Shown here piece by piece: positions 5,978-26,780 of a stretch of DNA of 64,000 nt (position 1 is its first letter; every line of letters begins with the position of its first letter). The stretch is from an uncultured Candidatus Bathyarchaeia archaeon (GTDB taxonomy: Archaea; Thermoproteota; Bathyarchaeia; Bathyarchaeales; DTEX01), in assembly GCA_964512445.1 (NCBI GenBank), contig CAZEGS010000001.1:4673-68672 (forward strand). The letters run 5' to 3'. The position numbers and the translations under genes were made by a program. Below the pieces are notes generated by a model. The model saw only the letters and a program-made list of their open reading frames with translations, did not search any database and was not told the origin of the DNA.

Positions 5978-7105
5978 TCAGATATGCTGATTCCTTATAA
6001 TTCGGGTATTCCAGCCATATTTTAATGCAGTTTTATACATCGTTAAAATGTTCTCTACCGGCACATCTGGCTGCATAGCGTGAGTTGGACCTAAGATTAG
6101 CCCTGTGGGTCCAAGCGTGGATATACGTTCCTTCACCTCCCGAGCTACATCTTCCGAACTGCCAAAAGGTAAAGTGCTCTGCACACCTATTGTTCCATCA
6201 AAACATAACTTGTCTCCATAAAGCTCCTTAAGCTTAGCCGGATCCATACATTCTGGCTGGATAGGATTTAGTATATCAACCCCTATCTCTATAAGATCTG
6301 GAATTATCGGTTCAATCCAGCCGTCGCTGTGAAAGAAAAAGAAGACTCCGTTTCTGTGGCAAAGATCTATCAGTTCAGCGTATTTAGGCTTCAAGAATCT
6401 TCTCCACATCTGAGGAGAAAGCATCATTCCCTTCTGCATTCCAACATCATCTCCATCCGTTATAACGTCAACTCCAGCTTCACATAGCAAAGAGGCTTCT
6501 TCCATCCTCAGCTTGTGTAGTCCATCCAAAATTCTGTTCGCCTCATCTGGTTTTACGAACATCTTTCGAATAATCTCCGAGAAACCAGTCAGCTGCCACG
6601 CTATCTCCCATAAATGAGTGACTCCGCCTTGCAAACAGAAGTCCTCATATTTCCTACGCATTTCTCTGACGGAGTCAATTGATTCCTCATCGATTTCCGG
6701 CCATATATAATCATCCAAACTTACCGTCTGTAATGGATGCTTTATGAATGTGTAAGTGTATGTATGATCTGGGGCCCATATGCTCTCAACCCCCCAAATA
6801 TCTCTTCTGATCTCAAATGCGCCTCTATATCCGATTGTGTAGGCGGTTCCATACGGCCCCTCCTTCTGTTCTACATTTTCTGGAAGGTAGCCTCCCCTTA
6901 GCCTCAATCCGACGCCTATGACGTCTACTCCCAAAGACTTATAGATCTTGATTCGCCCTTCCTCCGTTTTATCCTCAACGCCTAATGCTCCTCTCAATCT
7001 TTCATAAACTTCCGGACGGACACGTAGGGTGAGCGGTATCCTATCAGGATCTTCAAGCAGTATACTTCTGATACATCTTTCCCTAGATGAGATCAAAACA
7101 ATCAC
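5978..7105 (-). CDS. uroporphyrinogen decarboxylase (URO-D) family protein / MtaA-CmuA-like
   Basis: 375 aa. The C-terminal half FFFHSDGWIEPIIPDLIEIGVDILNPIQPE...ILGPTHAMQPDVPVENI matches the URO-D TIM-barrel pattern. Confidence 0.7.
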   Translation of the reverse strand: MIVLISSRERCIRSILLEDPDRIPLTLRVRPEVYERLRGALGVEDKTEEGRIKIYKSLGVDVIGVGLRLRGGYLPENVEQKEGPYGTAYTIGYRGAFEIRRDIWGVESIWAPDHTYTYTFIKHPLQTVSLDDYIWPEIDEESIDSVREMRRKYEDFCLQGGVTHLWEIAWQLTGFSEIIRKMFVKPDEANRILDGLHKLRMEEASLLCEAGVDVITDGDDVGMQKGMMLSPQMWRRFLKPKYAELIDLCHRNGVFFFFHSDGWIEPIIPDLIEIGVDILNPIQPECMDPAKLKELYGDKLCFDGTIGVQSTLPFGSSEDVAREVKERISTLGPTGLILGPTHAMQPDVPVENILTMYKTALKYGWNTRIIRNQHI

Positions 7106-7335
7106 TATCCCTGATCTATTGATCTTGAAGATTGTCTACTATTTTCGCATCTTAAATGTTATGATTTTTAGATTTCTTAAAAGAATTTGACATGAAGATT
7201 ATGAGCTTAAAGATCAGAATTGTAAAGTCTAAAATGGAGATTTAAAGATCGGTTAAACTCCAAAAAATTTAAAGATCTGATGATTTTGATAGTTTGATAA
7301 GTTAGAAGAATCTATATTGTTTGAAGGTGAAATTG

Positions 7336-8649
7336 ATGAAGAAACAGTTTCACATATTGTCATTGCTACTGCTTTCTTTGGGATTACTTCTCACATCCTC
7401 CGTCCTGAATGCTCAGAGCCAATATGTATATTATGGATATGTCCCTTTGAAGATAGTTGATGGCGGAGAATCCACATTACATATTGTTGGAAACCATAAT
7501 GAAACAAGCGTCCAAGTTTTATCTCTGCCTAAATCTGGCGTGCTGGCTGAATTTACAATTGACAGATTAGAAGAAAAGAGCTTAACGATCCCCAATGGAA
7601 CATTCTTCAAGATAGTTTCAGATAAGCCGATAATGGCTATACTAGCCGGGGGAAGCGAGGTAGAATCAGGCATCCGATCAATAACCACTTTTTATACGAG
7701 TGTTGAAGGCGGATACGTGGGTCGCGAGTTCATCTTCAGGACCTTTGCCAAGGGTAAAGGACTCGGCGCATACACGGTTTACGCATTAGAGAACTCGAAG
7801 ATAACGATATTTAATTCTACGGGAGATGAAGTTATGACTTTCACGTTGTCACCTAACGAGTATAAAGATTTCAACCTAAATCCCTTCGAGGTTCATAGGC
7901 TTGTCTCAACTGGGCGGGTAATACTCCAATCATTCGCTCAGAAGGCTCCTGGAGCTTGGGGAGGCGTAACGAGATGGAGCTCTTACTTCGTTCCCTCTCC
8001 AAAAGGCTCATTCATGGGTAGATATTTCTATGCGCGTGGCGCTTATCCAGGGCCGTACAAGATATACACCAACTACGTGTTTACATCAAGCCAGGAAGCA
8101 ACTTTGAAGGTGTATGATCTTGAAGCTAAATCTAAGATAGGAGAAGAGAAGATTCTGGTCGGCGAGAACAAGACGTTTCAATCGTTGAAGCCTCATCTCT
8201 TTTTCCAGAGTGACAAGCCTGTGATGCTTGCGATCTATGCTAATGATGGAGGGCTAATGGCTGCATGTCTAAAGGCCGGTCAGGATGTTTATCTACGCGT
8301 TCCATCAGATGAAAGTTTCATCTTTGCATGTGAAGACACTGTTTTAACTATGGATGGGGCTCAATATTCAATCTCTGCAGATGAGGCTTTCCAGATGCCT
8401 GTAGGGTTGCATGAGATAGTGGCTGACAAGAATGTAGCTGTGATAATGGTTGATTATGGCTCGGTCTCTTCTCTTCCTTCCTTTGGAGCTTGCCTACCAT
8501 CGATTCAGCTGGCGGATATAGAATATCAAGACTTGAAGATCGTCTCTTTAGAGGCGGGATTTCCATGGTTAACGATTGTAGGCGCCGTTGGTGTGGCGGT
8601 CTTGATTATTGTGGCATTAGTGGTGTTGAGAAGGATAAGATCACGATAG
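7336..8649 (+). CDS. secreted / cell-surface protein with signal peptide and C-terminal TM anchor, internally repetitive
   Basis: N-terminal MKKQFHILSLLLLSLGLLLTSSVLNA. C-terminal WLTIVGAVGVAVLIIVALVVLRRIRSR. Recurrent motifs are SDKPIMAILAGG, SDKPVMLAIYANDGG and ADKNVAVIMVDYG. Confidence 0.7.
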   Translation: MKKQFHILSLLLLSLGLLLTSSVLNAQSQYVYYGYVPLKIVDGGESTLHIVGNHNETSVQVLSLPKSGVLAEFTIDRLEEKSLTIPNGTFFKIVSDKPIMAILAGGSEVESGIRSITTFYTSVEGGYVGREFIFRTFAKGKGLGAYTVYALENSKITIFNSTGDEVMTFTLSPNEYKDFNLNPFEVHRLVSTGRVILQSFAQKAPGAWGGVTRWSSYFVPSPKGSFMGRYFYARGAYPGPYKIYTNYVFTSSQEATLKVYDLEAKSKIGEEKILVGENKTFQSLKPHLFFQSDKPVMLAIYANDGGLMAACLKAGQDVYLRVPSDESFIFACEDTVLTMDGAQYSISADEAFQMPVGLHEIVADKNVAVIMVDYGSVSSLPSFGACLPSIQLADIEYQDLKIVSLEAGFPWLTIVGAVGVAVLIIVALVVLRRIRSR

Positions 8650-8704
8650 AGCTTTTCGCCCCACAATTATGCTTAGGCTTCATTTAAACGGTAGCTCCGA
8701 GATC

Positions 8705-10054
8705 TTATTTATAGTGTTTCTTCATCTCCCTATTGAATGGAAGATTCAGAATGTCATCTAGGAGTTTTACGGCTTGCTCTTCGGATCTTGTCCATGGATC
8801 CATCATTATGAGTCCTAGTAAAAGTTCTTTGCTTCCAATCTCGTAGGCTTCCAGTTCTGTTTCGACTGGTGCAACTCTATCTCTCAGAATATGCGCAATT
8901 AAAGGTTTAGGTAATCCGTCGGTAGCTATGCCTTGAATCCCCCTTTTACTCACGAGTGCGGGGACCTCAACCTCGAAATCCTCTGGAACGCCTGGAAGAA
9001 GCTTGCCACTATTCATTATGTTAACCTGAAAAATTCTAGGTATATCGCAGGCTATAGATTCGATTATGTCTATTATGCTCTCTCCAGATTTCTGAGGTGG
9101 ATACATGCTTGTGGCTTTTACAGAAGATTGGGCAATCTTAATTAGTTCTGCAACTGGGTCTCTTCGTGGAGGATTTAACACGAAGCTCCACCATCTCTTC
9201 GGATCCTCTTTCCATCTCTTTTCAGTTTCGTCGTCTATGTGGTACCACCATGGCCATGCTCCCCCTCCGGGAGTGCATGTATCACCTATCGGGAAGACGC
9301 CGAATCTCTTGTATAAGTCTACGGCTTTCGGTCCTAAGCCGCTGCTGGGAGGAATAGTCTCCCAATATTTTGGAGCTTCCCTCTCAATCCACCTGTCTAG
9401 AAGCGGGTATGCGTCTTCACCATTATAGTAGAAATGCGTCAACCATATGAAGTGATTCACTCCTGGAACAAGGTATGTCATGCGCTCAGCATTAAGTCCT
9501 AAAACGTTAGCGATGCTGAATACTCCTCGGTATCCATGGCATAAACCAACAAACTTAAGCTTCGGATATTTTCGTCCTATCCATGTAACGCCAGCTAATA
9601 CGGGATTAGCAACTTTAAGATACCATGCATCTGGACATATATCCAATATATCGTTCACTATGGACTCGAAAAGCTTGAATTGATGAAAGTTTATCCAGAA
9701 CCCTTCGTCATGCATTATGTGATAGCTGCCGCCGAATCTATATCCGTGTTTAAATCCTATGTTCCAGCCTGCCCTGTATCCGCCGTAGCCGACAACCATA
9801 GCGGTGTTTATAACGAAGTCGGCGTCCTTTAGCGATTTTCTTCTATCCATAGTCTTCTCAAGATTCAGCTTAATCTTCATTTCCATAGCATATTTTCTGC
9901 AGAATGCATATACAGCATCCAGTCTCTCCTTATTTATGTCCATGAAGCTGACAGTGCTGCCTTCAAGATTAGGTGTGAGGCATAGATCCCTGATAAGCCT
10001 GACGGAGAAGGAAGCGCTACCAGCACCTATAATGCTAATCTTAACATCATCCAC
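8705..10054 (-). CDS. glycoside hydrolase family 4 (NAD/Mn-dependent alpha-glucosidase/galactosidase-like)
   Basis: 449 aa. N-terminal Rossmann motif KISIIGAGSASF, the GLCHG motif and overall GH4 length. Confidence 0.85.
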   Translation of the reverse strand: MDDVKISIIGAGSASFSVRLIRDLCLTPNLEGSTVSFMDINKERLDAVYAFCRKYAMEMKIKLNLEKTMDRRKSLKDADFVINTAMVVGYGGYRAGWNIGFKHGYRFGGSYHIMHDEGFWINFHQFKLFESIVNDILDICPDAWYLKVANPVLAGVTWIGRKYPKLKFVGLCHGYRGVFSIANVLGLNAERMTYLVPGVNHFIWLTHFYYNGEDAYPLLDRWIEREAPKYWETIPPSSGLGPKAVDLYKRFGVFPIGDTCTPGGGAWPWWYHIDDETEKRWKEDPKRWWSFVLNPPRRDPVAELIKIAQSSVKATSMYPPQKSGESIIDIIESIACDIPRIFQVNIMNSGKLLPGVPEDFEVEVPALVSKRGIQGIATDGLPKPLIAHILRDRVAPVETELEAYEIGSKELLLGLIMMDPWTRSEEQAVKLLDDILNLPFNREMKKHYK

Positions 10055-17955: not shown

Positions 17956-20900
17956 CTAAGCTTCTACAAATTTAGATAAACTCGTTTGTTTAGTCTCCTC
18001 TCCACTCTCGAATATCGATTTTATCTCCTCCTCGATTAGGAAGATCCGCTGAGCATAATATCTAGGCATATCATATTTCTTAATCAGATTCCGAGCTTCT
18101 TCCAGATACTTCTCTATACTACCACGATAGACCGTTAAGGTAAGTTCACCTCCACACTCGATGCATCTGCCTGATAGCGGAGCTCTCCTATACCTCTTGT
18201 TACATCTTTTGCATCTGAAGCTCTGAGACGTGTATGCCCGAAGATTTCCAGAGATGTCCCGTAGAAAATGTGTTGTGAGCACTATCTCTGCTACCCGTTT
18301 CGCGTCTACAGCTTCAATCTTCTCAGCGAGATGTAGCTGAGCATTCAGTTTATCTCTCATCTTCCGGAGCTTCTTGTATTGACTTTCCTTTGTCGCCTCA
18401 TTAATGTTGGATGTTGGAGTTGTAAATCCGAATCCTTGAAGTTGCGTTTCTTTTCCAAACCTATGCTTGACTATATCAATCATCTTCATTAAGTCTCTAG
18501 CACTTGTGCCTTTCAATGTCTCTTCATAGAACTTCAGGGGATACTTGAATGCCACATCGATTTCATGAGCTTGCCTTTGAATTTCTTGGGGATTTATAGC
18601 TCGAATAATAAATAGAGGAGAATCCATTATTCCTCCTATTCGATTCGGCAGATACTCTCTTGAGAAGTTTAAGAAGGCATCTAATGCCATAATTATGCTG
18701 TCTTCATCTCCATCGCAATCTCTACGCTTGGCGGAATGCCAGAATGGGTGAGCGAAGCATACGTTTAGATCAGTGAAGCCTATTATTCTGCCTAGAACAC
18801 CTGCACATGTATGGGGAGCTAATCCTATCACCAATTTTCCAACGAGGTCTTCGGGGCGGGATACATTATAGAATGGAGGTAGATCATATACTTTCTGTAG
18901 AAGCTCATCCACAAATCTCGTTATACGAATCAGATAATCTATGCTCTTTCTGGGAATCACAATATCCTGAACCTTGAGTTCGCATATCTGATCGGATCTG
19001 ACTAGTGGATCTCCCATATAGTCATGGGTATAACCAAGCTTTCTGAGAGTCTTAATTGAGACGCCTATCTCATTCGGCTTGAAGTGTGTTAAGGGAGCAT
19101 TTGTCATATCAAATCTTACAGTTCCATCCTTGTATACTGACAAGTTATATTTGGCTCTGAGGATTCCCTTCTCAAGAATCTCCGGCGTCTTCGTCTTGTT
19201 TGTTAAGCCCTTTACTCCTTTAATTTGTTTCGGCTTGTATCCAAGCTTTTTACATGCTTTATCAAGTAGGCTCTTTAGAGGTATCGATTGCTCCACATAG
19301 TTTCTGGTTTCAATCTTACAGACTGGACAGACCTCGCTCTTCAGGCTTTTTCCACATCTGGGACAGATGAATTCGAGAACTGTTGGAGATCGACAAGAGG
19401 GGCACAGCTGCATAAATGTTGTTATCTGACACTTTGGACATCTCCGCTTAACTATCTCGACACTTATGGCTCTATGCTCGCAGGCTTTTATGATATCTCT
19501 TTGTGCTCCACCGTTCAGACCGACTGGAAAAAGAATGTGAACCGGAGGAGCCATTTCTCTTTTACTTGCCTTTTCCGGACGCCCAACCCTCGCTCCGATA
19601 AATGTTGGAGCTTTATCTCGTATCTTTATCCCCGAGATTCTAGATAGATTTTCAAGAGTTGAAAGTTCATCGTCTATTTCTTCTTTCCCAGCTCCGTCAA
19701 GTCCAAGAGTGAAGGAGAACGAGTATGCATCTTCATTCTCTATAATTATCTTGTCTTCAACAACTCTGTGAGGAATGCATATCTGTTCAAGCTTCTCCTT
19801 TATCTTTCCAACAAGCTTTCCTTCTATTCGCTTTACTATCCCATTGATTTTCTCCACTTTTGCTTCTAGCAGCCAAGAACGAAGCTCCCTCACATCAGAC
19901 GGGAGAATATTAGCCCAGAAATAAGTATACGCTGGATGAAGAGGAACCTTAAGGGTCAGACTTATCTTTGTAGCTTCTTCTACGCTTGGCACGTCATAGA
20001 ATGGAGACTTAATGTATCTCATTAGAGATTCTGGCGGAATAGAAATCTTCTCCGAAGCTTCCTTCAAGTTCCCGCCGAACCTTTCAGCTATCGCCTCCTC
20101 AACTTCCTCCGCCCACCATTCTTCAGTATAGCTTGCCGGAAGGAGCTTCTTGTTATTGTATAGAAAATCACCGAAGCTCACTAGGAGATCGCCGAGAAAA
20201 AGTATCTTGTCAATTTTATCTTTGATGCGATCATAGTTCTCATAGGAGACCTTGACTACCGAGCCGTCTTTCAACTTTACGACGGGCGGTTCTATCGAGT
20301 CTACGGAGAGAACAACTCCTGACTTGCCGGGAGTCTCAATCTTGATCTGGGTGCCTCCTGCCAAAAAATTCTGAAGGATCCTCATTGTTAATGGATGGAC
20401 GGCAACGGCTGCTAGCCCGGTATTTCTAGATCTTCCATAGCGAAGTCTAAATCCGCCCCTTCTTGAGGGGAAGCTCAGTATTGGGCGGCCGGCTGGAACA
20501 TCCTCCATGAAACCTGATTTTTTCTTTCTTACAGCCTCCCGAATATCTTTCAGCCATTCCCATCCTTCGACTCCAAGACCCTCCACAACTGCAAGTACCT
20601 TTGCAGCTCGCCCAACTATGCCATCGTTTACTACGCGCAGGGCTCCCCCTCGCAGACAGTTTGTTTCAATACGAGGGAGATTGCGGAAAGATGAAACCTC
20701 AATATTGTTTGATGGAATTCCCGTGATTTCTACGGGGAGATTCTTTAAAGCTTTCCTTACTTCTTCATCTGAGACGCGATACTGGAAACGGCCAACCTCC
20801 CTTTCATAAAGCCTTAGTTCCTCTATAAAGCGGCTGATCTCTTCTTCAGTCGGCTTATAGCGATCTAAGCCTAGAAGGCGACGGACAAAATCCGCTACAA

Positions 20901-21387
20901 CTGGCGTGAGGGCAGTCTCTGTCCCACCTGCTGATCGTATCGGACCTGCAAAGTATATGGCGAGATATCTGGAGCCATCCATGTTGGATTTGATGAGTAC
21001 CTTGGATATACCTTCTGAGTATACGGCTGCGGTTACCCCTTCTGTGAGAATTGCAAGGGCGGTTCTAATAGCCAGCGCAGCTAACTTTTCATTATCATAT
21101 CGACCAAACTTTCCCTTAACTATCTCCTCAGCAATCTTAAATGCCATCCTCTCTCTTGACATCTTTTTCGAGAGACTTCGTATTCTCTCAGCAAGTTTTG
21201 GTATACCTATGAAGCCCTCCACAAGCCCCGCGAGATCTTCAGCTATCTCAATTTCGGGGTAAGGTTTTGGATCAAGCCCCAACTTTCTGGCCGCTGCAGA
21301 AATCTCACGAATTCTGTTTAGAGCCTTATCTAAATCTGAGAAGTACTTCTGATACTCTTTTGTTAAGTTCTGAAGCAAATCTATCAC
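17956..21387 (-). CDS. dp2: DNA polymerase II (PolD) large subunit DP2
   Basis: 1143 aa. Contains Zn-finger clusters (CPKCQ...CPSC, CPRCG...CPVC, CKRC...CIECG) and the conserved PolD catalytic core. No intein-sized insertion is seen. Confidence 0.95.
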   Translation of the reverse strand: MIDLLQNLTKEYQKYFSDLDKALNRIREISAAARKLGLDPKPYPEIEIAEDLAGLVEGFIGIPKLAERIRSLSKKMSRERMAFKIAEEIVKGKFGRYDNEKLAALAIRTALAILTEGVTAAVYSEGISKVLIKSNMDGSRYLAIYFAGPIRSAGGTETALTPVVADFVRRLLGLDRYKPTEEEISRFIEELRLYEREVGRFQYRVSDEEVRKALKNLPVEITGIPSNNIEVSSFRNLPRIETNCLRGGALRVVNDGIVGRAAKVLAVVEGLGVEGWEWLKDIREAVRKKKSGFMEDVPAGRPILSFPSRRGGFRLRYGRSRNTGLAAVAVHPLTMRILQNFLAGGTQIKIETPGKSGVVLSVDSIEPPVVKLKDGSVVKVSYENYDRIKDKIDKILFLGDLLVSFGDFLYNNKKLLPASYTEEWWAEEVEEAIAERFGGNLKEASEKISIPPESLMRYIKSPFYDVPSVEEATKISLTLKVPLHPAYTYFWANILPSDVRELRSWLLEAKVEKINGIVKRIEGKLVGKIKEKLEQICIPHRVVEDKIIIENEDAYSFSFTLGLDGAGKEEIDDELSTLENLSRISGIKIRDKAPTFIGARVGRPEKASKREMAPPVHILFPVGLNGGAQRDIIKACEHRAISVEIVKRRCPKCQITTFMQLCPSCRSPTVLEFICPRCGKSLKSEVCPVCKIETRNYVEQSIPLKSLLDKACKKLGYKPKQIKGVKGLTNKTKTPEILEKGILRAKYNLSVYKDGTVRFDMTNAPLTHFKPNEIGVSIKTLRKLGYTHDYMGDPLVRSDQICELKVQDIVIPRKSIDYLIRITRFVDELLQKVYDLPPFYNVSRPEDLVGKLVIGLAPHTCAGVLGRIIGFTDLNVCFAHPFWHSAKRRDCDGDEDSIIMALDAFLNFSREYLPNRIGGIMDSPLFIIRAINPQEIQRQAHEIDVAFKYPLKFYEETLKGTSARDLMKMIDIVKHRFGKETQLQGFGFTTPTSNINEATKESQYKKLRKMRDKLNAQLHLAEKIEAVDAKRVAEIVLTTHFLRDISGNLRAYTSQSFRCKRCNKRYRRAPLSGRCIECGGELTLTVYRGSIEKYLEEARNLIKKYDMPRYYAQRIFLIEEEIKSIFESGEETKQTSLSKFVEA

Positions 21388-21403: not shown

Positions 21404-21715
21404 TTATTCAGTGTGAATTCTGCAGAGTATAATTGTGGACCACTTCTCTATTGGACGCCCAACGACTTGACGATAAGTATTCTTTGCAAGTTCTACTCTA
21501 TGATTAACGCATGATCTACATCGTTCATGTCTCATGTCTGAAGGCCCATCACACTGACCACAGTTGAGAAGTAAAGTCTCTCCTAAACCTTTAAGATTTG
21601 TCCAAGCAAACTCTCGCTCATCATATTCAGGTTCAAAGTCAGGCCAAATATCATAGAGATCCTCTTGCCCTAAAACTTTCTTTAGGGATGCAAAATAATT
21701 CTCAAATGAGGTCAC
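21404..21715 (-). CDS. small zinc-ribbon protein, hypothetical
   Basis: 103-aa ORF with CGQC-x9-CRSC, tightly packed between the GGGP synthase and dp2 genes on the same strand. Confidence 0.45.
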   Translation of the reverse strand: MTSFENYFASLKKVLGQEDLYDIWPDFEPEYDEREFAWTNLKGLGETLLLNCGQCDGPSDMRHERCRSCVNHRVELAKNTYRQVVGRPIEKWSTIILCRIHTE

Positions 21716-21731: not shown

Positions 21732-22529
21732 TCAGCTAGACTGGCTAGTATTTCTATGTATTACTCCCTCTTTTATGCCTTCTACTATCTCCTTGATCTT
21801 GATCCTAAGCGATTGCGGATCACTCTCCTCCAAAGCAGTACTGGCAACTACGATATCGGCTCCGGCATGAACGATCTCTTTCGCTTGAACCCCTGTTCTT
21901 ACCCCGCCGCCAACAAGAAGAGGTAAATTAACAGTACTCTTCACCATCCTAATAATATTGGATGGAACAGGCTTGCTTACCCCAGATCCGCCTTCTAAAT
22001 AAATGAACCGCATACCCAAGTATTGAGCTGCTAAAGCATGAGCAGCTGCTAAGCCAGACTTGTTATAGGGAATAGGACATGCCTTTCCGATTACCGCTGC
22101 TGCGCCTCCCTCACCTAAAATCATGTAGCCAAGAGGAATCGGCTCTATACGTAATTTTTTAATTAGAGGAGCGGCAAGTACTTGTGCTCCAATTATGAAG
22201 TAGGGATCAGCAGAGTTAAGAAGCGACATGAACCATATTGCATCTGCATATCTGCTGATACCCGTAATATTGTTTGGAAATAGAATTATAGGTATGTTGA
22301 CGCTCTTCTTGATTGATTTAACAATCTCATCGAGATCCTCGGCGGAGACAAGTGTAGAGCCTCCCACCATAATTGCTGAAGCTCCTGCTTTCTCGCCTTC
22401 CTCCGCTATGAGAGAAGCAGACTCGCTAGTGACCTCTTCAGGATCAATTAAGGGTATGAATATGGAGCCTTTTTCTCGAATGCTTCTGAGAAGGTATCTT
22501 TCAATCTTACCTAACATGAACCTTTTCAC
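21732..22529 (-). CDS. geranylgeranylglyceryl phosphate synthase (PcrB/GGGPS family)
   Basis: 265 aa TIM barrel. The FIPLIDPE, MVGGS, FIYLEGGSG and LLVGGGV motifs are typical of GGGPS. Confidence 0.88.
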   Translation of the reverse strand: MKRFMLGKIERYLLRSIREKGSIFIPLIDPEEVTSESASLIAEEGEKAGASAIMVGGSTLVSAEDLDEIVKSIKKSVNIPIILFPNNITGISRYADAIWFMSLLNSADPYFIIGAQVLAAPLIKKLRIEPIPLGYMILGEGGAAAVIGKACPIPYNKSGLAAAHALAAQYLGMRFIYLEGGSGVSKPVPSNIIRMVKSTVNLPLLVGGGVRTGVQAKEIVHAGADIVVASTALEESDPQSLRIKIKEIVEGIKEGVIHRNTSQSS

Positions 22530-22539
22530 CTTTTCAGAA

Positions 22540-22767
22540 CTAACTATAATAGTTGTCGATGAACATGCAGTAGATGTCGACCGCCTCTAGATGCTCCTTT
22601 TTAGGAATCTCTGCAACCAGTCCGCAGCTTCCGCATTTTACAATAGCATTCTCAGAGTTCCTTTTAATTTCGATTTTAATCGCTTCCCTACCACATCTTG
22701 GACAGAGAAACACGCTGGGAAGCTTCTTTTTAGGCATCCGAATAACTTTTCGTCTTCTTCTACCCAT
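22540..22767 (-). CDS. elf1: Elf1-like transcription elongation factor (zinc ribbon)
   Basis: Basic N-terminus MGRRRRKVIRMPKKKLP, then FLCPRCG...VKCGSCG...EAVDIYCMFID, which parallels eukaryotic Elf1 (C4 ribbon followed by VDVYSDWID-like tail). Confidence 0.8.
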   Translation of the reverse strand: MGRRRRKVIRMPKKKLPSVFLCPRCGREAIKIEIKRNSENAIVKCGSCGLVAEIPKKEHLEAVDIYCMFIDNYYS

Positions 22768-22841
22768 CTCTCATCCAACAGAAAATGAATATGGAATATA
22801 TCCTCTCTTAAAGGTTTGCTGTTTTTAATCTATATATTTTA

Positions 22842-22914
22842 GTGTGATGTAACATGTGATCTAAGAATGATGTGTTACATCACAGATCACATCAAGCGAA
22901 TTTAGAGATCACAC
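22842..22914. repeat. palindromic word cluster A (TGTGAT / ATCACA family)
   Basis: TGTGAT at 22843 and 22855. TGATGT-GTT-ACATCA at 22868-22882, nested inside TGTGATCT (22855-62) / AGATCACA (22884-91). GATCACAC at 22907-14. Confidence 0.8.
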
Positions 22915-23229
22915 GTAACGTTGAAGGTTCAGGTTTCAGATAGCAGTCTTAAGAGATTTCTAAGAAACAAAAAGCTCCCTGAAAAACTCGTTTTTGATCA
23001 AGATAAAAATAGGCAATTTTAGTTTAAAATTGCTAATAATCTTTAAAAAATCAAATAAAAACTCGAGTGGAGCGTTTTTTGAGGGTCTCTGTATGATAGA
23101 TTCTGCTTATTGCAAAGGCTTATAAGGTATGATGGGATTAGGGTGTATATAAAATTGTATCCAAATGAGGGGTGATTCTTCCTGAAAGATGAATCTTTAA
23201 AAAATAGTATTAGAAGGTGGCTTTTAGGA

Positions 23230-23673
23230 ATTTTTCGAGACCCTATTGTCGAAATACTTCTAAAAAACAGTCATTTAACAAAAATACAACTAGAAACGCT
23301 TTTAATTGATTTTTTAGCAGAAAAAATGTCCGGAAAAAGAATAGTTTACGAAGACAAAGCTAAGATGAGACTTATAAAAACTGGTGTAAGCCGCGGCTCT
23401 TTCAACCGAACCTTAGCTCAAGCTAAATATAATACTATAAAATCCATCTACACACTTATTCTATTAGGTTATCTTGGGATCCTCGATACGCCACATCTTG
23501 ACCCTTACATTGAAATTTCTAATAGAATAAGAGACTATATGGAAGCATACAGAACTTTTTGGCAGGAAGGAAAACAAACAAAAGAACATCTCAGAATAAT
23601 GCAAATGCTACAGCGAGAACTAGAAGATGGTTTAATGAGGCTTTCTAAGCCAAAATCGATGAGCAATAAGTGA
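23230..23673 (+). CDS. small HTH DNA-binding protein (sigma-70 region 4 / Tfx-like pattern), start uncertain
   Basis: The track start is ATG 23326, but the frame is open from 23176 and reads protein-like (LKNSIRRWLLGIFRDPIVEILLKNSHLTKIQLETLLIDFLAEK). ATT at 23230 lies 9 nt after AGGTGG. HTH candidate: GVSRGSFNRTLAQAKYNTIKSI. Confidence 0.55.
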   Translation: MFRDPIVEILLKNSHLTKIQLETLLIDFLAEKMSGKRIVYEDKAKMRLIKTGVSRGSFNRTLAQAKYNTIKSIYTLILLGYLGILDTPHLDPYIEISNRIRDYMEAYRTFWQEGKQTKEHLRIMQMLQRELEDGLMRLSKPKSMSNK

Positions 23674-23693
23674 TCTGTGACATCACATATCAC
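23670..23693. repeat. palindromic word cluster B
   Basis: GTGAT-CT-GTGA-CA-TCAC-AT-ATCAC, a 24-nt interrupted palindrome overlapping the TGA stop of the HTH ORF. Confidence 0.8.
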
Positions 23694-23793
23694 ACTAGAC
23701 ATTCTAAGTGTTTTCATAAAAGATAAAGAAATAGGCCTATTTTAAAGCTCTTTTTGTGAACAAAAATAATTTTTGGGAAAGTTTTTTATGATG

Positions 23794-23856
23794 CTAGTGA
23801 TATCATATATGATCTGATTGTGATGTGTGACATCACAGGTTGGAGAGTGTGATCTT
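23794..23856. repeat. palindromic word cluster C
   Basis: GTGATATCA; TGTGATGT-GTG-ACATCACA at 23819-23837; GTGTGATCT at 23847-23855. 23806-23840 matches 22853-22887 at 27/35 positions. Confidence 0.8.
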
Positions 23857-23869
23857 GGAAGATTTTACA

Positions 23870-24526
23870 ATGCTGATGATTAATTTACTGCTGTTCTTCT
23901 CGATATCAACAATTCTAGTAATATATATTAAAAAAATTCGGAATGCCGACATAGAGTATACAAAGGCAAAAAGTATCCTAGAAGAAATAGTTCTGAGTTT
24001 TAGTAGGGAAATTCAGGATTTAGAACAGAAAATTGAAGATATCAATGTAAGATTAGAGAATATTCGGATGCTTGATAAGGATCAAATTAAGTCGGAACTT
24101 AACGCTCTTTCTTCTAAGATAGAAAACTTGATGAGCCTATATTCATCTTTAGAGAGAAAGATTGAGAATTTTAAGGCAGAGATTAATAGATTTTCAAGAT
24201 CTATCAGTCAACAAACAGCAGATGTAAGGGAAGAATCAGAGCCGGACATAACACCTAAACCAGCTTTTCATCTAAGAAGAGAAAGAGCTCTAGCGCCTTT
24301 AACACCAACAGAGCTCAAAGTTTTGGAGATTTTATCTACTGAAGGAGATAAGACTGTACGTGAGATTAGGAGTAGGCTTGGATTAACGAGGGAACATACT
24401 GGACGTTTGATGAAGAGTCTATATGATAGAGGATATGTTGAAAGAAGAACAAATAGGATCCCTTATGTATATAGAATTAAGAGGGAGATGGAGAATCTTC
24501 TCAATAGAAATCAAAGTGATTTTTAA
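23870..24526 (+). CDS. membrane-anchored coiled-coil protein with C-terminal MarR/TrmB-like winged helix
   Basis: N-terminal TM MLMINLLLFFSISTILVIYI. About 110 aa of heptad-like sequence (EQKIEDINVRLENIRML...LERKIENFKAEINRF). C-terminal LTPTELKVLEILSTEGDKTVREIRSRLGLTREHTGRLMKSLYDRGYVER. Confidence 0.65.
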   Translation: MLMINLLLFFSISTILVIYIKKIRNADIEYTKAKSILEEIVLSFSREIQDLEQKIEDINVRLENIRMLDKDQIKSELNALSSKIENLMSLYSSLERKIENFKAEINRFSRSISQQTADVREESEPDITPKPAFHLRRERALAPLTPTELKVLEILSTEGDKTVREIRSRLGLTREHTGRLMKSLYDRGYVERRTNRIPYVYRIKREMENLLNRNQSDF

Positions 24527-24527
24527 T

Positions 24528-24926
24528 TCATCTGGTTATAAGAAGACGAAAACGAGTTTTGTTTGAAGATTTCTGTTTAATGAGTAAGCCTCGATTAGCC
24601 AAACGGGATAGATAAGTAGAAACGGTGCTTAAACCTATATGTTCACCTGTAACATTCTCGTATTCTATCTGTACATCTCTCGGAGAAAACCAAGAAGATG
24701 AAAAATTTTTCTCAATTATAGATTTAATTTTTTCAAATTTCGTTAGACTTTCCTCCGCCCTTTCTGAAAACTTATCTTCATGCATTCCTCCAAGAAGCTC
24801 GATCATATCTAAAATTTTGAGAACATTTCTTCTAGAGATCTTCCCCTCCAGCATAATGGTATATCGATTACCTGATTCATCGTAAACTTCAATACGCAGC
24901 TTCCTCGCAGGCAATACCCTCACCAT
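24528..24926 (-). CDS. winged-helix DNA-binding protein, hypothetical
   Basis: 132 aa. C-terminal HIGLSTVSTYLSRLANRGLLIKQK is a wHTH recognition-helix pattern. It is transcribed away from the oriC left flank. Confidence 0.6.
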   Translation of the reverse strand: MVRVLPARKLRIEVYDESGNRYTIMLEGKISRRNVLKILDMIELLGGMHEDKFSERAEESLTKFEKIKSIIEKNFSSSWFSPRDVQIEYENVTGEHIGLSTVSTYLSRLANRGLLIKQKSSNKTRFRLLITR

Positions 24927-25114
24927 AAGCTAAAGGATCATTTCATTTCTCTAGTTACACTTCACAAGTTATAAGATAATCGGTGATATGTGAAAATAAA
25001 AAAAGAAAAATTATGGATAAAATAAAGAAAGAGCCGAAAAATCCAAAAATTTCCAGAGAAACTTCACAGATTTTTTGCGATAACAAAAAAGGAAAAGGAA
25101 AAAGAAAAGGGATC

Positions 25115-25142
25115 AAATCTCCAGTGGAAACGAAGGGGTGGC
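25115..25142 (+). repeat. ORB1 (origin recognition box, forward)
   Basis: AAATCTCCAGTGGAAACGAAGGGGTGG. Confidence 0.85.
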
Positions 25143-25293
25143 CTTTCACAAAAAAGTGAAAATAAATCAGGATTATAAAAAGAAGAAAAACTCAAAAATA
25201 GACTTTTACCTAGTAATTTAAAACAGATTTTCAAAAACAATATATTTTATTCGTACTCAGTGATAAAACTTGTATTTACTGTTAACAACGGAC

Positions 25294-25318
25294 GCACCCA
25301 TATTTTTCCAGTGGAAAT
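25294..25318 (-). repeat. ORB2 (origin recognition box, reverse orientation)
   Basis: GCACCCATATTTTTCCAGTGGAAAT. The reverse complement gives TTTCCACTGGAAAAATATGGGTG. Confidence 0.8.
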
Positions 25319-25395
25319 AAATTTTTTACTTTTCTTATTTCTAAAAAATGAAATAAATATAATCATATATTCACATTCCACGCCCAAAATAATGT

Positions 25396-25427
25396 TATTT
25401 CCAGTTGAAATAATGGGGTGTGGGGGT
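25396..25427 (+). repeat. ORB3 (origin recognition box, forward)
   Basis: TATTTCCAGTTGAAATAATGGGGTGTGGGGG. Confidence 0.8.
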
Positions 25428-25538
25428 TCCTCAATGTGATTTGTTTTATTATCAATTTTTTTGTAGAGCAGATCTTATCTATGAAACCCGATGTGAGCTG
25501 ATTGTCTTTAACAATTCACCGATATCAGAGGATCACAA

Positions 25539-26780
25539 ATGAACAAACAAAGCGAAATATTGGAGGAGGTCTTCAACAACTTTTTAGGAGAATCCAGAAT
25601 CTTTAAGAATAGAGAAGCTCTCAGACATGATTACATTCCTGATTATCTTCCCCATAGAGAAGAAGAGATTCGAATGCTCGGTCAAATATTAGGCCCCTCA
25701 TTAAGAGGTACACTTTGCTCCAATATCCTTATTTATGGAAAAACTGGGACAGGAAAAACTGCGGTGACAAAATTTGTTCTTAAACGTTTAGCAGAAAAAG
25801 CTGATGAGATTAATTCTCCACTCAGAGTTTCATTTGTAAATTGTAGACTTGTTGGAACAGAGTACAGGGTGCTTTCAGCATTATGCTCCAGTATAGACGT
25901 CAAGGTTCCATTTACTGGACTTGCTTTAGGTGAAGTTTTTGATAGGTTTAAATCAGCTCTAGATTCTCAAAAAATCGTTCTAGTAGTAGCATTAGATGAA
26001 ATAGATGCTCTAATAAAGGATAGAGGAGATATCCTCCTCTATGAACTTACAAGAATTAATGAAAATCTCAGTCAAAGCAAAGTTTCAATTCTAGGAATCT
26101 CTAATGATCTTCGATTCAAAGACATGCTTGATCCAAGAGTTCTTAGTACTTTAAGCGAAGAGGAAATAATATTCAAGCCATACAATGCTGAGGAGCTTCA
26201 AGATATTTTAGAGCAGCGCGCCAAGATCGCATTTAAAGAAGATGTCTCAGCTGATGTTGCCATAAAATTATGTTCAGCAATCGCAGCCGCTGAGCATGGA
26301 GATGCAAGAAGAGCCTTAGATCTTCTCAGAGTAGCTGCGGAGTTGGCTGAAAGGGAAGGTGAAAGAACAATCACGGAGGATCATGTATATCGAGCGCAGA
26401 AAAGGATCGAACATGATCGTGTTGTTGAAACTCTAAAGAGTCTTCCAATGCATTCTAAAATTGTTCTTTTAAGCATCTTTCTACTTTCAAAATCAAAAGC
26501 AAAGGGATTCATGACGGGTGACATCTATAATGTTTACTGTGAGTTATGCAAGGAGATGGGTGTAAACCCGCTCACACAAAGAAGGGTCAGTGGATTAATA
26601 AATGAACTTGATGTAATTGGACTTGTCAATTCAAGAGTTGTGAGTTTAGGCAGATATGGCAGATCAAAAAAGACTACTCTCGGAGTACCCTATAGTGTGA
26701 TAAAAGAGGCTCTTTTCGAGGATGAAAGAATGCGAAATATGGTAACATATATTCCTAGATATCTAAATTCTATACGTTAA
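25539..26780 (+). CDS. cdc6: Orc1/Cdc6 replication initiator (AAA+ plus winged helix)
   Basis: Walker A GKTGTGKT, Walker B VVALDEID, sensor regions and a C-terminal wH (RRVSGLINELDVIGLV). Confidence 0.95.
   Translation: MNKQSEILEEVFNNFLGESRIFKNREALRHDYIPDYLPHREEEIRMLGQILGPSLRGTLCSNILIYGKTGTGKTAVTKFVLKRLAEKADEINSPLRVSFVNCRLVGTEYRVLSALCSSIDVKVPFTGLALGEVFDRFKSALDSQKIVLVVALDEIDALIKDRGDILLYELTRINENLSQSKVSILGISNDLRFKDMLDPRVLSTLSEEEIIFKPYNAEELQDILEQRAKIAFKEDVSADVAIKLCSAIAAAEHGDARRALDLLRVAAELAEREGERTITEDHVYRAQKRIEHDRVVETLKSLPMHSKIVLLSIFLLSKSKAKGFMTGDIYNVYCELCKEMGVNPLTQRRVSGLINELDVIGLVNSRVVSLGRYGRSKKTTLGVPYSVIKEALFEDERMRNMVTYIPRYLNSIR

Follow-up and report, generated by a model that had tools for sequence, protein, structure and literature searches.

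What could be the role of an array of short words that surrounds a small gene close to the replication origin of an uncultured archaeon? This question is raised by a 64,000-nt stretch of DNA from a Candidatus Bathyarchaeia archaeon (assembly GCA_964512445.1, contig CAZEGS010000001.1, positions 4,673 to 68,672), which was analysed as a whole and is called the window below. Three clusters of one word family lie here around a gene that we call X and in front of a second gene, memHTH, coding for a membrane-anchored coiled-coil winged-helix protein; the two genes with their words are referred to as the module. We believe that the three clusters are probably a multi-site operator array of this ancient two-gene module. 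Few uncultured archaea are as abundant as Bathyarchaeia, and to our knowledge almost nothing is known about their gene regulation and chromosome biology; a look at the literature revealed no relevant description of a Bathyarchaeia origin or regulator. Our data comprised the window and loci of relatives, roughly 10 kb each, among them a comparison set of 80 orthologous Bathyarchaeia loci from GTDB species representatives.

The word array and its conservation

A first-pass annotation of this DNA had described the three clusters, and every word and palindrome that it listed was found in its place (Table 1). With a word defined as GTGAY/RTCAC, cluster A contains GTGAT at 22844 and 22856 and ATCAC at 22879, 22886 and 22908, while TGTGATCT/AGATCACA encloses TGATGTGTTACATCA. 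The X start follows 270 bp downstream of this cluster, which is also ~28 bp upstream of the TATA element of the divergent Elf1 gene. The core of this cluster, gATCACAtGTTgCATCACAcATCACAg, is kept in the close relatives used for footprinting (85-87% X identity). The nested palindrome TGATGT-GTT-ACATCA, to which the annotation had drawn attention, is present in the window but is not kept as a palindrome, close relatives having ATCACA-TGTTGC-ATCACA instead. Cluster B does sit on the stop codon of X, with TGA (23671-23673) inside its first word. Cluster C is composed of GTGAT at 23797, 23820 and 23849 and GTGAC·ATCAC at 23827-23836 (ATCAC at 23832), and also holds the degenerate palindrome ATCATATATGAT at 23802-23813. 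The direct repeats said to link clusters A and C were reproduced exactly, at 27/35 identity. Between 22700 and 24000, the sole word outside the clusters is the GTGAT at 23172, within the Shine-Dalgarno sequence GAGGGGTGAT of X. Also present at 23013-23033 is the perfect 9+3+9 palindrome GCAATTTTA-GTT-TAAAATTGC, which folds far better than shuffled sequences (z -4.3); no conservation of it was found in the 85-87% relatives, and it is lineage-specific.

The geometry first proposed for these sites, arms of 6-8 bp with 3-nt spacers, did not survive the comparison. The real unit is a pentamer or hexamer (a 5-6 bp word YGTGAY/RTCACR, with the extended consensus YGTGAYNT over the 80 loci), arranged in direct 7- and 11-bp phasing and in spacer-less palindromes; the look of arms and spacers arises because of how the words abut in this genome. 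When pairs of consecutive words were pooled over the 80 loci, direct pairs at 7 bp formed the commonest class (240 pairs), followed by direct pairs at 11 bp (182), convergent abutting pairs, GTGAYRTCAC, at 5 bp (154), and divergent pairs at 7 bp (34) and 5 bp (30).

Such arrangements are strongly concentrated in the module. In the window, TGTGATS has 24 matches against 12.4 +/- 3.5 in shuffled sequences, none of 100 shuffles reaching 24, and nine of these matches fall within the three clusters. All four 7-bp direct pairs GTGAYNNGTGAY of the 64 kb and both of its GTGAYRTCAC palindromes lie inside clusters (shuffle means 0.49 and 0.41, respectively). For the 80 loci, with 608 kb of flanking DNA, we counted four composite motifs: direct pairs at 7 bp (1.72 per kb inside the module vs 0.015 outside), direct pairs at 11 bp (1.38 vs 0), palindromes (1.07 vs 0.018) and divergent motifs (0.22 vs 0.002). 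Composite motifs are thus ~60-100 times or more denser in the module than in the flanks. Single words number 20 per 1.7 kb module at the median (range 10-30), compared with 3.7 expected from the flanks. The first-pass annotation had pointed to random genome-wide scatter as the pattern that would speak against its proposal; in the data examined, the word family is restricted to this locus and conserved.

Over the elf1-cdc6 interval, whose comparison the same annotation had recommended, the words cluster at the same places in the 80 Bathyarchaeia loci. Word density per 50-bp bin is ~0.03 in the flanks and climbs to 1-2 at three places, ahead of X, over its stop codon and before memHTH. The X stop codon is found within gTGAyRTCACAnATCACA in most of the 80 loci. 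In 72 of 74 loci, at least two words (median five) separate the TATA-like element of memHTH from its start codon; the first of them is most commonly 22 bp from the start of the TATA element, which is near the expected transcription start site. In many lineages cluster C follows a recognizable grammar: GTGATgtGTGAYgtcat, ~35 nt, the TATA element (CTTAAA), ~14 nt, GTGATgtGTGATgcaac, ~8 nt, ATCAC-N6-ATCAC and the start codon. Cluster A is the variable member, with 0-16 words situated 69-632 bp upstream of X and fewer than the three words of our cluster criterion in 10 of the 80 loci. In some lineages nadE and a nitrilase-family gene sit between Elf1 and cluster A, and the cluster remains with X. 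The footprint among the 85-87% relatives limits conservation to the words and the promoter elements, the DNA between them being variable. The spacer between cluster A and X differs between subgroups, and neither a conserved non-coding RNA nor a small open reading frame (ORF) was found in it.

The co-occurrence of X, memHTH and the words extends from the 80 Bathyarchaeia loci to Nitrososphaerales and Caldarchaeum, that is, to three archaeal orders. In Nitrososphaerales (L085, L090) the whole synteny recurs, with words between the X stop codon and the start of the winged helix-turn-helix (wHTH) gene. In Caldarchaeum (L086, L087) X adjoins a wHTH gene with a transmembrane (TM) helix; GTGATgcggcGTGATgc is found directly upstream of the X TATA element, and more words occupy the 5' part of the wHTH gene. 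There, no cdc6 or PolD gene was found within 5 kb of the pair. Because pair and words occur together in Caldarchaeum without these neighbours, the words belong to the gene pair and not to the origin.

Words are also clustered within coding sequence in several loci (L086 5480-5530, L087 5523-5560, and L035 4350-4385 with nine similar loci). The coding-sequence words of Caldarchaeum directly follow the TM helix of the wHTH gene, and in one Bathyarchaeia subgroup a divergent aminotransferase gene contains, ~600 bp upstream of X, a 35-bp stretch with five words. Two further candidates were rejected. A conserved TGTGACATCACA ~1960 bp upstream of X (L040 2985-3000 and eight similar loci) is a coding coincidence in nadE, where it encodes the peptide ICDIT, and motif matches at ~+5000 coincide with the mapped gene of the PolD small subunit.

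The two proteins, their promoters and the neighbourhood

The "small HTH gene" of the first-pass annotation (HTH, helix-turn-helix) exists, but its 115-aa call covers only the C-terminal two-thirds of a 163-aa protein; the HTH nature of the product is plausible. The shorter version had been called from the ATG at 23326, while the open frame reaches back to 23176. The start position of the homologs corresponds to a CTG at 23182, preceded at 5 nt by the strong Shine-Dalgarno sequence GGGGTGAT; CTG is also found in two relatives (L084, L001), and ATG, TTG or GTG in others. This points to either a non-canonical CTG start or an N-terminally truncated protein. The family counts 516 homologs, mostly 163-164 aa long, and a profile search added shorter relatives of about 130-145 aa. 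AlphaFold2 models of X are all-alpha, with predicted local distance difference test scores of 84 (full length) and 94.5 (N-terminal domain, residues 1-103). Its helix 71-85 (SRGSFNRTLAQAxxN) is nearly invariant. No relative of X was found in Pfam, NCBIfam or PHROG; in the PDB its sequence profile had no match, and the best Foldseek E values were 0.58 (full length) and 3.6 (N-terminal domain), neither significant. Weak, non-significant Foldseek matches to sigma region 4, TFIIB and Orc6 are hints only.

Distant X paralogs (~25% identity; L088 3799-5423, L089 2393-5426) are found in mobile-element-like regions, next to genes for a ParA/CbiA ATPase, a terminase large subunit and a T2SSE ATPase. 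The X-like gene of L088 comes immediately after parA, in the slot usually held by the gene of a centromere-binding protein. In the paralogs from such contexts the helix is altered, RT being changed to KI, and no words were seen in the X-flanking regions read. Neither X nor its mobile-element paralog had relatives on viral contigs.

The promoter and 5' leader of X were recognized by phylogenetic footprinting. Between the TATA element and the X start there is a second conserved element, GTATAYAAA-NN-TGTATYCA, which consists of two TGTATMC copies 11 bp apart and occurs once in the window. Of 90 loci, 85 carry it ~35-50 bp upstream of X, Caldarchaeum included. A second DNA-binding protein may have its site here, so that two proteins would be served by two motif families.

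The memHTH protein is built of an N-terminal TM helix (LMINLLLFFSISTILVIYI, hydropathy 2.43), a coiled coil of roughly 100 aa and a C-terminal MarR/TrmB-type winged helix (residues 154-213; Pfam MarR 1.6e-9, TrmB 1e-8). The TM helix is kept in all three orders, and there is no extracellular domain able to act as a sensor. Conservation across Bathyarchaeia, Nitrososphaerales and Caldarchaeum is also seen for the recognition helix, (S/T)REHTxR(L/V)(M/L)K. In other lineages a CTTAAA element is equivalent to the TATA/BRE-like element (BRE, B recognition element) of memHTH in the window.

The module is embedded in a stable neighbourhood. Gene order runs from the PolD large subunit through a 103-aa Cys-rich ORF, GGGP synthase, Elf1, cluster A, X, cluster B, cluster C and memHTH to a divergent 132-aa wHTH gene, three repeats resembling mini-ORBs (ORB, origin recognition box), cdc6 and the PolD small subunit. 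This synteny between the two PolD subunits is retained in essentially all 80 loci. In many lineages (L029, L031, L033, L040-L042 and others, about 6500-9100) an insert of roughly 2.7 kb separates memHTH from the 132-aa wHTH gene. The origin-adjacent place of the latter is kept in Bathyarchaeia and Nitrososphaerales; in Caldarchaeum it is not beside the X-wHTH pair. The 103-aa Cys-rich ORF encodes one of the most conserved aligned proteins of the locus (41% of columns at least 95% identical among 39 sequences), and it has no match in Pfam or NCBIfam.

Table 1. Positions in the window of the module, its promoter elements and neighbouring features
Feature	Coordinates	Strand	Remarks
PolD large subunit	17956-21387	-	
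103-aa Cys-rich ORF	21404-21715	-	between PolD large subunit and GGGP synthase
Elf1	22540-22767	-	
Cluster A	22842-22914	.	five exact words plus degenerate copies
X promoter and 5' leader	23117-23176	+	phylogenetic footprint
X TATA-like element GGCTTATAAGG	23117-23127	+	
Second conserved element GTATATAAAATTGTATCCA	23145-23163	+	between TATA element and X start
X Shine-Dalgarno sequence GAGGGGTGAT	23167-23176	+	
Gene X	23182-23673	+	163-aa all-alpha protein of an uncharacterised family
Cluster B	23670-23693	.	GTGAT-CT-GTGAC-ATCAC-AT-ATCAC
memHTH TATA/BRE-like element AAAGTTTTTTATGA (GGAAAGCTTTTTAT in relatives)	23778-23791	+	footprint
Cluster C	23794-23856	.	fills the interval from TATA element to start codon of memHTH
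memHTH gene	23855-24526	+	start TTG 23855 placed by alignment with relatives' ATG
132-aa protein beside the origin	24528-24926	-	C-terminal wHTH; faint Fur and MCM_C winged-helix matches
Three mini-ORB-like elements TTCCAGTGGAAA	25119-25410	.	upstream of cdc6
cdc6	25539-26780		

Operator array or something else

Three functions had been offered for the array in the first-pass annotation: an operator set for the adjacent HTH proteins, a centromere-like or tethering site, and an accessory origin element. The first of these fits best, because the words fill the interval between TATA element and start codon of memHTH (72/74 loci) and travel with the gene pair, while the last one was not supported. 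In the scenario that we favour, a DNA-binding protein encoded by the module would recognize YGTGAY and would bind cooperatively to runs of words at 7 or 11 bp and to abutting palindromes. Since cluster C lies over the predicted start and 5' leader of memHTH, its occupancy should block the recruitment or escape of RNA polymerase, which would amount to negative autoregulation. Clusters A and B would contribute to cooperativity, looping or control from upstream. The sites of Caldarchaeum abut the X promoter, and X would therefore be controlled as well.

Which protein binds the words is a matter of guesswork at the level of sequence. We would give memHTH about an even chance, X a distinctly smaller one, and it may be that both take part. 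Near-invariant candidate recognition helices in both X and memHTH parallel an invariant DNA word, and conservation of these helices did not discriminate between the two candidates. Nor is a test of covariation between helix and word possible, because the word never varies.

Several points weigh against an operator array of this kind. Sequence conservation, as just described, cannot tell which protein would be the binder. The 10-30 words per module far exceed what ordinary autoregulation needs. In many lineages cluster A, with up to 16 words, is 370-530 bp from the nearest start codon and directly follows the 3' end of a co-directional gene; there, simple promoter occlusion would therefore not apply. 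The 7-bp direct spacing and the spacer-less 10-bp palindrome are atypical for MarR-type dimers. Finally, the view of a possible regulon covers the 64-kb window and the loci of roughly 10 kb.

It is tempting to suppose that some of these features reflect a centromere-like or membrane-tethering site, although we regard this as unlikely. Copies of memHTH, possibly together with X, would polymerise on the arrays and anchor origin-proximal DNA, in the service of segregation or positioning of the chromosome, and these sites would at the same time act as an autoregulatory operator, as in parC/ParR and omega/parS. Such a role is kept alive because of the number of words, the distant cluster A, the membrane anchor without a sensor and the proximity to oriC. 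Indeed, the array is large, with a median of 20 and as many as 30 words, and is iteron-like in its phasing at 7 and 11 bp; many lineages have cluster A far from any promoter. All three orders retain the TM helix, again without an extracellular sensor domain. In Bathyarchaeia and Nitrososphaerales the module is 1.3-2.3 kb from the mini-ORB origin, and its architecture is like that of the omega heptads, WATCACW, which serve as both operator and centromere. On the other hand, the module has no ParA, ParM or other motor gene, neither cdc6 nor PolD turned up within 5 kb of the pair in the Caldarchaeum loci read, and cluster A falls under the three-word criterion in 10 of 80 loci. Tethering would also be indistinguishable from a membrane-bound repressor that simply binds its own promoter. 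In its most specific form, to which we assign a slightly lower chance still, the arrays of Bathyarchaeia and thermophilic Nitrososphaerales would be a motor-less centromere in the style of the replicon model: an attachment site that tethers origin-proximal DNA to the membrane, with X as a partner and autoregulation built in.

We consider it very improbable that the array is an accessory origin element, meaning extra sites for an initiator (Orc1/Cdc6 or another replication factor) or a second origin in the Elf1-X interval. True, it adjoins cdc6, both PolD subunits and the mini-ORBs, and the spacer between cluster A and X is AT-rich (GC 0.33 vs 0.42). However, the word is unlike the ORB consensus, and ORB-like elements form a separate conserved set. 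With at most one mismatch, they match the window only at 25119, 25306 and 25399 and not at all in 22842-23856; in 55 Bathyarchaeia loci the mini-ORB-like matches are concentrated at ~-600, -400 and -200 from the cdc6 start. The set upstream of cdc6 is the canonical origin, separate from the word array. The words, for their part, track the X-memHTH pair in Caldarchaeum, where the pair has neither cdc6 nor PolD within 5 kb, the cluster A-X spacer is unconserved (69-632 bp), and the best-conserved clusters are the promoter-proximal ones.

Even less can be said for an element acting at the level of RNA or DNA structure, such as hairpins in the 5' leader, a C/D-box-like small RNA or the cruciform extrusion suggested at first. 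TGTGATGTGTGACATCACA can form an 8-bp hairpin, and GTGATC is complementary to the 3' end of 16S rRNA. Yet the folding z-scores of the clusters are unexceptional (-1.5 to -1.7), the words occur on both strands and also at non-transcribed positions, and the hairpin is lost in other lineages, where the same site is the direct repeat GTGATgtGTGATgcaac. An Rfam scan of 22500-25700 gave no match at E<=1, and no compensatory pairing changes were seen, the words being invariant rather than covarying. Last, the 42-nt direct repeats of 79% identity that flank gene X could recall a mobile-element relic with a 953-bp insert, or the clustering could be due to chance, but this reading is effectively refuted by the comparative data: the same arrangement recurs at orthologous positions in 80+ genomes of three orders, there is no transposase or integrase, and the enrichment statistics hold in the window and across loci.

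Significance and known systems

The array provides a rare cis-regulatory handle whose word, positions and stop-codon overlap are kept across at least three Thermoproteota orders. It also brings forward two unstudied proteins, one from a helical family without a relative in Pfam or the PDB, the other a membrane-tethered winged-helix protein. With candidate binding sites known to the base pair, binder and regulon are directly testable. If the membrane anchor and the size of the array do reflect DNA tethering beside oriC, the module would bear on origin positioning in archaea without known segregation machinery.

Among known systems, the omega heptads of plasmid pSM19035, WATCACW, act as both operator and centromere (PMC9499535). 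The arrays of omega heptads (parS) consist of non-palindromic 7-bp repeats set end to end in both orientations, lie over promoters and act as operators. The words described here recall them in that direct 7-bp spacing is the commonest, in their overlap with promoters and in their probable operator role, and even the core pentamer is the same (WATCACW vs (Y)RTCAC(A) in the module). This match of pentamers is most likely coincidental. Omega itself, encoded by a bacterial plasmid, belongs to the ribbon-helix-helix proteins and has a ParA ATPase as its partner, whereas the host here is an archaeal chromosome. No ribbon-helix-helix match was found at the module, X being all-alpha and its neighbours wHTH proteins. 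There is no ParA gene in the conserved synteny; one is found only near the distant X paralogs of mobile elements, next to which no words were seen. In contrast to the omega arrays, 11-bp phasing and spacer-less palindromes are equally common in the module. Runs of four to five words at 7-8 bp do occur in some loci (L053, L061), and the window has at most three to four contiguous words.

A second parallel is ParR-parC of plasmid R1, in which 11-bp iterons flank the parMR promoter, ParR is a ribbon-helix-helix protein and ParM an actin-like motor. In R1 as in the module, short direct repeats in helical phase form two sets that bracket the promoter of the known or candidate binder gene, and in both an operator and a higher-order nucleoprotein complex would share one DNA. 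The differences are that the module comes without a motor and that its candidate binder is membrane-anchored.

As for the proteins, ToxR, CadC, TcpP and the archaeal ArnR are single-pass membrane proteins with a cytoplasmic winged helix or HTH that bind direct repeats at promoters. Being a single-pass membrane protein with a winged helix, memHTH resembles them, but its topology is reversed, with the TM helix N-terminal and the wHTH C-terminal; moreover, it has a long coiled coil and essentially no extracytoplasmic domain, and hence no obvious sensor. Archaeal autoregulators of the MarR/TrmB/Lrs14 type share with it the wHTH superfamily, and their sites likewise overlap their own TATA box or lie downstream of it. 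These regulators use one to few dyad-symmetric sites of 16-20 bp, whereas in the module 10-30 pentamer words, phased at 7/11 bp, are spread over three clusters. Such a 16-20 bp dyad is not matched here, since the half-site centres of GTGAYRTCAC are 5 bp apart and the other arrangements are direct repeats. With ORB and mini-ORB elements the words have in common that short elements are repeated near cdc6; they differ from them in sequence and in place, and persist without cdc6 within 5 kb. Overall, we conclude that the array is real, deeply conserved and previously undescribed, and that it is best filed as a variant form of the iteron-type autoregulatory operator.

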